Origin: a virus
Taxonomy: Duplodnaviria; Heunggongvirae; Uroviricota; Caudoviricetes
Length of the DNA: 10,967 nt
Strand: one strand, 5' to 3'
IMG/VR virus record: IMGVR_UViG_2541047881_000003
In this document: positions 2,786 to 10,967 of the stretch, piece by piece
Numbering within the stretch: the stretch's first letter is position 1
Layout of the letters: each line of letters opens with the position of its first letter
Program-made: the position numbers and the translations under genes
Notes under the pieces: generated by a model
Seen by the model: only the letters and a program-made list of their open reading frames with translations
What the model was told of the DNA's origin: nothing
Databases searched by the model: none

Positions 2786-2841
2786 TGATCTTACCCAGCA
2801 ATAGTGGACACGCGGCTAAGTGAGTAAACTCTCAGTCAGAG

Positions 2842-3150
2842 GTGACTCACATGACAAAAACAGTATCAACCAGTAAAAAACCCCGTAAACAGCATTCGCC
2901 TGAATTTCGCAGTGAAGCCCTGAAGCTTGCTGAACGCATCGGTGTTACTGCCGCAGCCCGTGAACTCAGCCTGTATGAATCACAACTCTACAACTGGCGC
3001 AGTAAACAGCAAAATCAGCAGACGTCTTCTGAACGTGAACTGGAGATGTCTACCGAGATTGCACGTCTCAAACGCCAGCTGGCAGAACGGGATGAAGAGC
3101 TGGCTATCCTCCAAAAGGCCGCGACATACTTCGCGAAGCGCCTGAAATGA
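2842..3150 (+). CDS. insE: IS3 transposase OrfA (helix-turn-helix / leucine zipper)
   Basis: 102-aa [35 protein letters not shown]...; ends 4 nt after the orfB start; slippery A-AAA-G at 3113-3117. Confidence 0.9.
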
Positions 3151-4013
3151 AGTATGTCTTTATTGAAAAACATCAGGCTGAGTTCAGCATCAAAGCAATG
3201 TGCCGCGTGCTCCGGGTGGCCCGCAGCGGCTGGTATACGTGGTGTCAGCGGCGGACAAGGATAAGCACGCGTCAGCAGTTCCGCCAACACTGCGACAGCG
3301 TTGTCCTCGCGGCTTTTACCCGGTCAAAACAGCGTTACGGTGCCCCACGCCTGACGGATGAACTGCGTGCTCAGGGTTACCCCTTTAACGTAAAAACCGT
3401 GGCGGCAAGCCTGCGCCGTCAGGGACTGAGGGCAAAGGCCTCCCGGAAGTTCAGCCCGGTCAGCTACCGCGCACACGGCCTGCCTGTGTCAGAAAATCTG
3501 TTGGAGCAGGATTTTTACGCCAGTGGCCCGAACCAGAAGTGGGCAGGAGACATCACGTACTTACGTACAGATGAAGGCTGGCTGTATCTGGCAGTGGTCA
3601 TTGACCTGTGGTCACGTGCCGTTATTGGCTGGTCAATGTCGCCACGCATGACGGCGCAACTGGCCTGCGATGCCCTGCAGATGGCGCTGTGGCGGCGTAA
3701 GAGGCCCCGGAACGTTATCGTTCACACGGACCGTGGAGGCCAGTACTGTTCAGCAGATTATCAGGCGCAACTGAAGCGGCATAATCTGCGTGGAAGTATG
3801 AGCGCAAAAGGTTGCTGCTACGATAATGCCTGCGTGGAAAGCTTCTTTCATTCGCTGAAAGTGGAATGTATCCATGGAGAACACTTTATCAGCCGGGAAA
3901 TAATGCGGGCAACGGTGTTTAATTATATCGAATGTGATTACAATCGGTGGCGGCGGCACAGTTGGTGTGGCGGCCTCAGTCCGGAACAATTTGAAAACAA
4001 GAACCTCGCTTAG
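3147..4013 (+). CDS. insF: IS3 transposase OrfB (DDE catalytic domain); normally expressed as an OrfAB fusion by -1 frameshift
   Basis: 288-aa ORF in the -1 frame relative to orfA; IS3-family transposase sequence (…[33 protein letters not shown]…[10 protein letters not shown]…). Confidence 0.9.
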
Positions 4014-4174
4014 GCCTGTGTCCATATTACGTGGGTAGGATCAATTGTAAATTCACCTAATTACGAGGACATTGCAGTAGTTGAATTGCAGCTCTGTATT
4101 AGCCTGACAGTGACAGAATGCGATATTGACTCTGTCACAGGTGAAATAGTTTGAATGATTAGCAGTTATGGTGC

Positions 4175-5886: not shown

Positions 5887-6090
5887 CATTTTCACTTTTT
5901 TAAATCCAACGACAGACGGCTGGCATTTAAGTATTGTGAAATATTATCAAATGTAATCATCATTGATTTACAAAAGATACATTTTGCCCCGAAAGGATTC
6001 ATGTCAGAAACATCAAAAGATGATGTTCTATACTGGGAACCATGACAACACGGGCATCTAAAGTGAATATGGTTTGTAATATTGTCTACC

Positions 6091-6303
6091 TCAAAGCGCC
6101 ACTACATGAACAGCGGCAGGACCTTTAGGTCCGTTCTCAATACCAAATTCAACTTCCTGATTCTCAGTTAATGTTTTGAAATCGTTGCTCTGAATTGCTG
6201 AGAAATGGACAAACACATCTTTGCTGCCATCTTTCGGCGTGATGAAACCAAAACCTTTTTCAGGGTTAAACCATTTCACTAAACCAGTCATTTTGTTAGA
6301 CAT
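6091..6303 (-). CDS. cspI: cold shock protein, CspA family (70 aa)
   Basis: [38 protein letters not shown]… with RNP1 (KGFGFI) and RNP2 (VFVHF) motifs; C-terminal half matches CspI rather than CspA/CspB; long AT-rich leader upstream (6304-6665). Confidence 0.9.
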
Positions 6304-6665
6304 AATTATTACCTTTTGAAGAAATTAGCCCTTGGGCAGAATGGTCCGAAAAAAAATATCAGAGAGAAAAACCAACAAGGAAATCTCAAGAGGTACAAAT
6401 AATAAAATTATAACAATGACTGCTTCAGATAAATTTGTAACAAACCAGAACACCATTAACGCATGATTAACCACCCATAGCAAGGATTACTTTTGTAAAG
6501 AAAAACACAGCAATGAAAGAATAGCTTTATTTATTAATAAAACGTGTCATTCTGATTAAGACCTTTTATCTTACCCTTAAGATTTCAGGAATTTTGGCTC
6601 ATGGAAGAGTCCTTTTTATTTAAATTTTACATTCCGCGATGTAAATGTTCCGATTTAATATTACC

Positions 6666-8694: not shown

Positions 8695-9035
8695 GAGATT
8701 GTGGTGCTTTTTGTGGGAGTCATCCACTTACGCACTTTGTTTTGCGATGCCAGCAGTTAGCTTCTGCTGTGAAACTATTCATGCAGCAAACCTGCACTTC
8801 ACCACAATGGTTAGCATACTTTTCCTGATTAAGATTTTGCCAAATATGCTAGCCATTGTTTCATGTATTGGACCTCCTTACTTTTTATTAAAGAGATCCA
8901 ATATTCACTACTCTGTCCGTATCTCTACTCAGGCATCAGCCTTCTTCGTTATCGTATACAGACGAGCGATGAATTTTAATCAGTAATGATGACATTTGCT
9001 GCTGCAGGACCTTTAGCACCACTCTCTATAGAGAA

Positions 9036-9044
9036 GGTAACCTT
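9036..9044. repeat. IS1 target-site duplication, left copy (GGTAACCTT)
   Basis: Identical 9-mer immediately flanks both IS1 ends. Confidence 0.85.
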
Positions 9045-9099
9045 GGTGATGCTGCCAACTTACTGATTTAGTGTATGATGGTGTTTTTGAGGTGCTCCA

Positions 9100-9375
9100 G
9101 TGGCTTCTGTTTCTATCAGCTGTCCCTCCTGTTCAGCTACTGACGGGGTGGTGCGTAACGGCAAAAGCACCGCCGGACATCAGCGCTATCTCTGCTCTCA
9201 CTGCCGTAAAACATGGCAACTGCAGTTCACTTACACCGCTTCTCAACCCGGTACGCACCAGAAAATCATTGATATGGCCATGAATGGCGTTGGATGCCGG
9301 GCAACTGCCCGCATTATGGGCGTTGGCCTCAACACGATTTTACGTCACTTAAAAAACTCAGGCCGCAGTCGGTAA
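9100..9375 (+). CDS. insA: IS1 InsA (transposition regulator, zinc finger/HTH)
   Basis: 91-aa [43 protein letters not shown]…. Confidence 0.9.
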
Positions 9376-9797
9376 CCTCGCGCATACAGCCGGGCAGTGA
9401 CGTCATCGTCTGCGCGGAAATGGACGAACAGTGGGGCTATGTCGGGGCTAAATCGCGCCAGCGCTGGCTGTTTTACGCGTATGACAGGCTCCGGAAGACG
9501 GTTGTTGCGCACGTATTCGGTGAACGCACGATGGCGACGCTGGGGCGTCTTATGAGCCTGCTGTCACCCTTTGACGTGGTGATATGGATGACGGATGGCT
9601 GGCCGCTGTATGAATCCCGCCTGAAGGGAAAGCTGCACGTAATCAGCAAGCGATATACGCAGCGAATTGAGCGGCATAACCTGAATCTGAGGCAGCACCT
9701 GGCACGGCTGGGACGGAAGTCGCTGTCGTTCTCAAAATCGGTGGAGCTGCATGACAAAGTCATCGGGCATTATCTGAACATAAAACACTATCAATAA
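9294..9797 (+). CDS. insB: IS1 InsB (transposase catalytic part; expressed as InsAB' by -1 frameshift)
   Basis: 167-aa ORF in the -1 frame relative to insA; A6C slippery run at 9351-9357. Confidence 0.9.
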
Positions 9798-9812
9798 GTT
9801 GGAGTCATTACC

Positions 9813-9821
9813 GGTAACCTT
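9813..9821. repeat. IS1 target-site duplication, right copy (GGTAACCTT)
   Basis: Identical 9-mer immediately flanks both IS1 ends. Confidence 0.85.
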
Positions 9822-10266
9822 TTGACCTTCAAATAAGGTTCGATAATTATCATTCTGAATCGCAGAAAAATGCACAAACACATCTTTACTACCATCAACA
9901 GGAGAAATAAAGCCGAAACCTTTATCAGCGTTAAACCATTTTACTAAACCAGTCATTTTATTTGACATTCTACATTCCTTAACTTGAGCCTTTCGGCATA
10001 AATGGTTTGCATAACAGAAACGACTTCGTACTTAATTGGAGAGACTCAAAGAAGGAATAAGTGAATAACACCTGAAATGAGAACTGCTTTAGTAAACTAC
10101 TTCGTATATCGTCTGTTCTTCAAACCGACGCAGTCATTAACTCATAGTTGAACATATGAAGCAATGTTTATTTTAGACATCCAGCCACCTTCAATCCTAT
10201 CAAAAAAGTAGTTTTCTCCAGGAACGTGTGTATGGTGCACCAGGTTATCAGTATTAAGGAGTTTTT

Positions 10267-10480
10267 CTGTCCCCTAAAATGACAGGAATTGTCAAAAACT
10301 TTGACTACAAAAGCAGCAAAGGTCTTATATTCCCATCCGATGGCGTATCGATGCCCAGCTTCACGTTTCAGCTCTCAATCTTCGAGATGCAGAAGAAATT
10401 ACCACAGGATTACGCGTGGAATTTTGCTGGATAAATGGTTCGCGTGGACCTTCAACTGCCAATGTTTATCCCGGGATGAG
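10267..10480 (+). pseudogene. cspF: CspF/CspH-like cold shock gene, apparently inactivated (start codon position reads CTG; frameshift near 10343-10345); 3' limit approximate
   Basis: One frame gives [22 protein letters not shown], then homology continues in another frame ([10 protein letters not shown]…[21 protein letters not shown]); AAGGAG (10256-10261) is spaced for the codon at 10267, which is CTG here; relies on recalled CspF/CspH sequences. Confidence 0.55.
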
Positions 10481-10512
10481 ATTCAATATCTCTATTGCCC
10501 CATTTAAAGCAC

Positions 10513-10537
10513 AAAAACCCGCTTATAAGCGGGTTTT
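10513..10537. terminator. bidirectional intrinsic terminator (perfect palindrome AAAACCCGCTTATAAGCGGGTTTT with T-tracts on both strands); candidate tR' for the late promoter and terminator for cspF
   Basis: Perfect inverted repeat read directly; A-run upstream and T-run downstream make it functional in either direction. Confidence 0.6.
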
Positions 10538-10583
10538 CTACTTTTTTCTAAACGTCGGATACACAAAGCCCATCGTTGAGAAA

Positions 10584-10612
10584 ATCTTATCCATGTTTTT
10601 TGAAAAATGCAA
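10584..10612 (-). promoter_or_regulatory. candidate sigma70 late promoter (pR'-like) just downstream of the Q gene: -35 TTGCAT (10612-10607), 17-bp spacer, -10 TAAGAT (10589-10584)
   Basis: Hexamers found by eye on the minus strand about 50 nt upstream of the palindromic terminator; placement matches lambdoid Q-pR'-tR' architecture; hexamer matches are moderate only. Confidence 0.25.
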
Positions 10613-10643
10613 ACATCATGTCGCCATCTTCAGCAAAAATCAT

Positions 10644-10967
10644 TTATCTCGTCACCTTCCTCAATTGCGCTTCCGCGTATGCTTCTTCCTGCCAGCACTT
10701 TGTTACCAGTTTACCAATGACGTCCGCATACCCCTTATACCACTGATAATCGGTCAGGTCTGGTACCAGCTTCTGGACATGACGTCGTGCCAGCGTGGTC
10801 GGTAAACGACTAAACCGGTTTCCATTACAACGCCCACAAATCTTATATACCGGTACGCCATGAAACCGGGTTCTTTTTTCATCCAGAACAATCCCTTTAC
10901 CCTTACACCCTCTGCACGCTGTGCTGACTTCGCCCTTACCATGGCAATGCTGACATAGTTCCTTCAC
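10644..10967 (-). CDS. quuQ: late-gene antiterminator Q, C-terminal part (5' end lies beyond the window)
   Basis: Translation …[51 protein letters not shown]… has the Cys-x2-Cys…Cys-x2-Cys zinc-binding region typical of Q proteins; reading frame is open to the window edge. Confidence 0.8.

Follow-up and report, generated by a model that had tools for sequence, protein, structure and literature searches.

A degenerate, widely shared cspF allele beside an IS1-interrupted cspB in a Qin-like cryptic prophage of Escherichia coli

Gene content of the prophage segment

The window, by which we mean the whole stretch of 10,967 nucleotides that was analysed, covers that part of a Qin-like E. coli cryptic prophage which lies nearest to ydfJ. 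Its genes are arranged in the order ydfJ, ydfK, pinQ′, IS3, a gene encoding a DUF1398 protein, gnsB, ynfN, ynfR, ynfQ, and cspI, followed by rzpQ, rrrQ, ydfR, essD, ynfU, cspB::IS1, cspF′, and ydfT′ (Table 1). The synteny essD-ynfU-cspB(−)-cspF(+)-ynfS-ydfT(−) is that of the Qin-type locus in K-12 and ATCC 25922, with the difference that ynfS is missing here. The genes cspI, ydfK, and ynfN are intact in the window, as an earlier note on this DNA, made from the sequence alone, had stated. No complete E. coli genome was found to be collinear with the whole window, which, with the IS load, had raised the suspicion of a Shigella origin; the ORF that fuses CspB′ to IS1 has its exact match instead in NCBI assembly GCA_000460355.1, scaffold KE701684.1. 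Relative to K-12, the remnant lacks the tail-fibre and nohA region. pinQ is interrupted by an IS3 copy (window 2786-4044), and a second, inverted IS3 just beyond the right end of the window (L009 3635-4960) truncates both ydfT, which keeps 366 of its 753 nt, and rspA. With IS3 copies at both sides, the prophage remnant is bracketed by this element. The interior of the outer copy is unaligned, possibly because of a scaffold gap.

Table 1. Features of the cspB-cspF region, together with the leader of cspI, in window coordinates
Feature	Position	Strand	Basis and remarks
cspA-type thermoregulator leader of cspI	6064..6449	−	Rfam RF01766, 112.8 bits
cspB 3′ fragment (KVT from the target duplication, last 19 codons, stop)	8976..9044	−	Translation
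IS1 in cspB (768 bp)	9045..9812	+	9-bp duplication GGTAACCTT at 9036-9044 and 9813-9821
cspA-type thermoregulator leader of cspB	9801..10129	−	Rfam RF01766, 116.6 bits
cspB 5′ fragment (codons 1-52)	9813..9968	−	Translation, ORF list
Shine-Dalgarno AAGGAG of cspF	10256..10261	+	5 nt before the start position; family consensus TAAGGA; direct sequence reading
cspF pseudogene body	10267..10468	+	Codons 1-26 in the 10267 frame, codons 27-68 one base earlier
CTG at the family's TTG start site (T to C transition)	10267..10269	+	Alignment with cspF of K-12 and of other species
1-bp deletion site (T of GGT CGT gone, frame shifted)	10343..10344	+	Alignments; surrounding 71 bp uniform in 209 genomes
258-bp deletion junction	10468..10469	+	K-12 alignment; junction found in 216 complete genomes
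Terminator-like hairpin and T-run	10514..10547	+	Terminator scan, K-12 alignment; moved beside the cspF remnant by the deletion
ydfT 3′ part (antiterminator Q homologue)	10644..10967	−	Convergent with cspF; truncated by IS3 just past the window end

The element in cspB, whose termini were located through the known IS1 ends GGTGATGCTGCCAACTTA... and, on the opposite strand, GGTAATGACTCCAACTTA, has the full set of IS1 hallmarks: the expected length, terminal inverted repeats, InsA (91 aa), InsB (167 aa), and a 9-bp target duplication. It breaks cspB after codon 52. Excising IS1 together with one copy of the duplication yields the ATCC 25922 sequence exactly, and the IS1/cspB junction occurs in 0 of 5426 complete E. 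coli genomes; the insertion is therefore recent and private to the window strain.

Both cspA-type leaders score above the RF01766 gathering threshold of 78 bits. The leader of cspB fills most of the cspB-cspF intergenic spacer, and its RF01766 match stops approximately 10 nt before the site where IS1 inserted. These two leaders were the only RNA families that the Rfam scan returned, with none on cspF, and a promoter scan of positions 9960-10660 returned no sigma-70-like site, a negative of little informative value. In K-12, ynfS lies on one side of the hairpin and T-run that now adjoin cspF, and the 3′ end of ydfT on the other.

Lesions and coding potential of cspF

Sequence comparisons indicate, with a probability that we put at about 90%, that window positions 10267-10468 hold a non-functional remnant of cspF, a cold-shock-domain gene of the CspF/CspH type, within the Qin-like cryptic prophage. 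Pairwise alignment to intact cspF, as the earlier note had suggested, placed the lesions base by base, with K-12 cspF (NC_000913.3 1641855-1642067) as the reference. K-12 cspF (b1558, NP_416076.1), which resides in Qin, is likewise divergent from cspB, with the same spacer between the two genes, and convergent with ydfT; the gene and its upstream spacer align to the window at 94.5% identity, the Shine-Dalgarno spacing is equal, and 59 of 68 residues are identical between K-12 CspF and the repaired window protein. Unlike the window allele, K-12 cspF starts with TTG, runs through 70 codons in an intact frame to ...ANVYLS and a stop codon, and is followed by ynfS. The K-12 paralogue cspH (b0989) belongs to the same family, is also divergently paired with a cold-inducible csp gene (cspG), and has the TTG start and MSRKMTG N-terminus in common with K-12 cspF; in contrast to the window cspF, it is a chromosomal gene, present in nearly all E. 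coli, intact in K-12, and located outside the window.

The first of three differences from intact cspF concerns the start codon. The earlier note had read the Shine-Dalgarno motif as spaced for the codon at 10267 and had pointed out that this codon is CTG, and both the sequence itself (CTG followed by TCC CCT AAA ATG ACA GGA) and its alignment with K-12 cspF at the start annotated there bear this out. The same note had taken ATG to be the usual start of the family, and here it was mistaken: intact cspF and cspH genes start with TTG in K-12, E. albertii, C. freundii, E. fergusonii, and Salmonella. These five species share the start context TAAGGAATTT(T/G)T-TTG-TCN-CNT-AAA-ATG-ACA-GG and keep the Shine-Dalgarno motif and its spacing. 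An in-frame ATG four codons 3′ of the TTG is a further feature of the CspF/CspH family (seen in the window; in L002 at 11856; in L010 at 1676, minus strand; and in L012-L018).

Nor is loss of function through the CTG borne out. Mosaic cspF genes with CTG (WP_024172454.1 in S43 and WP_072731525.1 in ET151) match the window in the upstream region, the Shine-Dalgarno motif, and codons 1-13; from approximately codon 14 onwards they are K-12-like and in frame, with a normal stop and with ynfS present, and PGAP annotates them as intact 70-aa proteins starting at CTG. Their existence in approximately 38 complete genomes partly contradicts the earlier note, for this lesion only. The mosaic genes lie at 1535-1747 in both L007 (S43) and L008 (ET151), and the recombination breakpoint falls between window positions 10299 and 10306. 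In reporter assays, UUG initiates at 10-100% and CUG at 1-2% of the AUG level (bioRxiv 10.1101/063800). Since CUG retains this residual activity and CTG is found on otherwise intact cspF, the substitution weakens initiation and need not abolish it. The TTG to CTG change is therefore a weakening polymorphism and not an established knock-out.

The second lesion is a frameshift. CspF homology runs in the 10267 frame through ...PSDG (GGC at 10342-10344) and then continues one base earlier, as the earlier note had recognised when it estimated that about one base was missing at 10343-10345. Where K-12 has GAT GGT CGT ATC, the window has GAT GG- CGT ATC, which places the loss of a single T between positions 10343 and 10344. 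This site contains no homopolymer run.

The third lesion removes the 3′ end of the gene. CspF homology stops at ...ANVY (10468), and past ...AAT GTT TA the window continues as TCCCGGGATGAG, which K-12 has 258 bp farther along. The deleted segment corresponds to NC_000913.3 1642058-1642315 and comprises the last two cspF codons (Leu-Ser), the stop codon, and the entire ynfS, a small-protein gene of 29 codons (Pfam PF23697). The abnormal C-terminus described in the earlier note is thus genuine, its cause being this deletion into the neighbouring gene and not a small indel.

We then compared the coding potential of the locus with that of the repaired gene. Restoring the missing T gives a conceptual protein of 68 residues that scores 131.1 bits against the NCBIfam model NF012007 (cold shock-like protein CspF; PRK15463) over model positions 1-68 of 70, above the curated cutoff of 111 bits, and 60.7 bits on the Pfam cold-shock domain (CSD, PF00313). 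The ORFs actually present at the locus reach only 35.1 bits (positions 5-27) and 22.7 bits (positions 52-68) on NF012007, below the cutoff, and have no Pfam hit, including to PF00313. The score of the repaired gene shows ancestry and not present function; together with the PGAP annotation, these scores uphold the earlier designation of cspF as a pseudogene.

A functional CspF would be encoded by an uninterrupted ORF of approximately 70 codons with a complete cold-shock domain, start at a TTG 5-6 nt past a TAAGGA Shine-Dalgarno motif, and end in ...ANVYLS followed by a stop codon. The window contains no such ORF and has CTG at the start position, and the Leu-Ser-stop lies within the deleted 258 bp. 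As the window stands, the ORF from the ATG at 10279 terminates at TAA 10432-10434 (51 aa) and contains approximately 22 residues of the cold-shock domain, while the second frame, which carries the C-terminal homology, extends to 10805, antisense to ydfT. The frameshift alone would limit any product to 51-55 residues, of which only the first ~22-26 would belong to the cold-shock domain. A functional CspF protein is presumably not made from this allele; a short aberrant peptide could be, through weak initiation at CTG or through the ATG at 10279.

Substitutions in the gene say less about its fate. The dN/dS ratio was 0.35 for the repaired window cspF against K-12 and 0.14 for cspF against cspH, with only 19 differing codons, and the modestly raised value of 0.35 is not in itself proof of relaxed constraint. 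Residues Y14, S17, and W55 of the window allele also occur in E. albertii CspF, which marks them as old polymorphisms and not as products of decay. Codon 55 (10429-10431) is TGG (Trp) in the window and in ATCC 25922 and CGG in carriers L003-L006, which shows that even the dead allele varies between genomes; the corresponding residue of E. albertii CspF is Trp.

Distribution of the allele among complete E. coli genomes

Population counts were obtained by searching short diagnostic queries against 5426 complete E. coli genomes. The 71-bp frameshift region was present in 216 of them, 209 at 100% identity, and the 258-bp deletion junction was likewise present in 216. The CTG-type 5′ region is slightly more common (255 genomes, among them the ~38 with an otherwise intact cspF), and the K-12-type TTG 5′ region was found in 1372 genomes. 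Positions 10100-10620 of the window have matches at 100% identity in many complete genomes, including ATCC 25922, and in 215 genomes the match extends over at least 80% of this segment; LF82 is identical to the window at the 5′ end of cspF and around the frameshift. All three lesions are present in every carrier allele that we inspected by sequence (L001 and L003-L006), and a search for intermediate alleles, in which only one lesion or two would be present, found none. Because the lesions are common to 216 genomes, the pseudogene must long predate the window strain. The triple-lesion allele is carried by approximately 4% of complete E. coli genomes and is old or mobile enough to be shared.

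The allele is already known as a dead gene, in that PGAP flags the cspF pseudogene in more than 200 RefSeq genomes. In ATCC 25922, the pseudogene DR76_RS17085 is 100% identical to the window over positions 10100-10620 with the same three lesions, and PGAP describes it as 'frameshifted; incomplete; partial in the middle of a contig; missing C-terminus'. FCI56, whose cspF differs by extra SNPs only, and 2014C-4587 have similar pseudogene annotations.

The window comes from a draft scaffold, which raised the question of whether the gene is truly intact and the frameshift arose in sequencing or assembly. The earlier note had asked that a homopolymer error at the GGC run be excluded, and such an error can be dismissed, as 209 complete genomes, each sequenced independently, match the 71 bp that span the deletion at 100% identity and the missing base lies outside any homopolymer run. 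The CTG and the 258-bp deletion would in any case persist. One record could be cited in favour of an error: CP123276.1 encodes an 'intact' 70-aa protein of exactly the window allele (P0001), and this was the only 100% match to the repaired allele in a protein search. On inspection (L011, 1638755-1644967), its sequence is window-type at every SNP and K-12-type at every indel; the 258-bp segment is 100% identical to K-12 within flanks of ~93% identity; its total length of 4,641,690 bp compares with 4,641,652 bp for MG1655; and its cspF lies less than approximately 100 bp from the K-12 coordinate. We infer that this record is a reference-guided consensus on MG1655 and rejected it as a true intact copy. 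The probability that the window frameshift is an artefact is, in our assessment, negligible.

A different possibility is that the locus is damaged and still functional, through a short N-terminal peptide started at the ATG at 10279 or at the CTG, or through a full-length product made by +1 ribosomal frameshifting. The Shine-Dalgarno motif and the promoter-proximal region are conserved, CUG supports initiation at the low level given above, and the allele has persisted almost unchanged in the 216 genomes that carry it, a degree of identity that recent common descent predicts equally well. In TUM18781 and MSI001 (L003 and L006), which have the identical 1-bp deletion, an extra C (GGT CCT) 18 nt upstream, at approximately 10325, restores the reading frame, and PGAP accordingly omits 'frameshifted' from its description of these two genes. 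Their 3′ end is still missing, however, and the frame-restored gene has no stop codon and enters sequence antisense to ydfT. In the window allele, a frameshift-stimulating motif is not apparent, and the 51-aa ORF has its ~22 cold-shock-domain residues and no Pfam hit. We consider retained function very improbable.

Probable erosion of the prophage and the fate of the cspB/cspF pair

The disruption of cspF can be compared with that of its divergent neighbour. An 801-bp block containing cspB and the 5′ part of the dead cspF matched 216 records at 99% identity or above, although full-length coverage in all of them is not strictly proven, and cspB is annotated as intact in all five carrier loci inspected (ATCC 25922 and four others), whereas the window cspB carries IS1. 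Judging from these sequences, cspB appears to be uninterrupted in genomes with the dead cspF. With the cspF lesions shared by 216 genomes and the IS1 junction found in 0 of 5426, the two disruptions are independent, as the earlier note had held, and of very different ages. The private IS1 insertion, together with the IS3 cuts in pinQ, ydfT, and rspA, points to general IS-driven decay of the prophage.

The earlier note had also suggested relaxed or negative selection on the cspB/cspF pair, and an adaptive, selected loss of cspF, or of both genes, would indeed account for three lesions within one 200-bp gene and for both divergent genes being hit in the window strain. Other damaged cspF products in the protein database (P0027, P0012, and P0025) hint at repeated damage. 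The three lesions are nonetheless linked on one allele and could represent a single inactivation followed by drift. The proposed selection on the pair is not sustained by the comparison of carriers, in that cspB appears uninterrupted in the others (annotated intact at the five loci inspected) and the IS1 hit is unique to a strain that is IS-rich, with IS3 cutting neighbouring genes. The K-12-type TTG 5′ end is retained in ~84% of cspF-bearing complete genomes, and in the one fitness assay that we found, a long-term stationary-phase competition, the cspF knock-out had no effect, while the cspB and cspI knock-outs did (PMC7406224). Our survey of population counts, strain IS content, and literature gave no indication of selection against the two genes as a pair, and we regard adaptive loss as unlikely.

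Neutral decay of a dispensable prophage cspF, followed by unrelated IS activity, is very probably the best explanation of these sequences. An ancestral cspF allele would have gained three changes: TTG to CTG, the 1-bp deletion at codon 26/27, and the 258-bp deletion. Much later, and in the window strain only, IS1 would have transposed into cspB, and the IS3 copies of this strain would have cut pinQ, ydfT, and rspA. Overall, insertion sequences would be driving the neutral erosion of a cryptic prophage whose cspF is dispensable.

The significance of these results lies mainly in correct annotation, as cspF is here an ordinary pseudogene of a decaying cryptic prophage. For gene callers and readers alike, ATG is not to be expected as the start of CspF/CspH genes, whose TTG is conserved across genera. 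CspF and CspH have no known function and do not have the aromatic residues on which RNA binding depends (PMC6719143). Widespread loss of cspF beside a retained cspB fits the knock-out results, with cspF dispensable and cspB aiding long-term survival. More speculatively, and with low probability in our view, TTG may serve to limit CspF expression, in which case CTG could be a selected down-tuning with pseudogenisation as its end point, and CspF may be mildly deleterious in some lineages. If this were true, the population of cspF alleles would offer a handle on the function of CspF/CspH.
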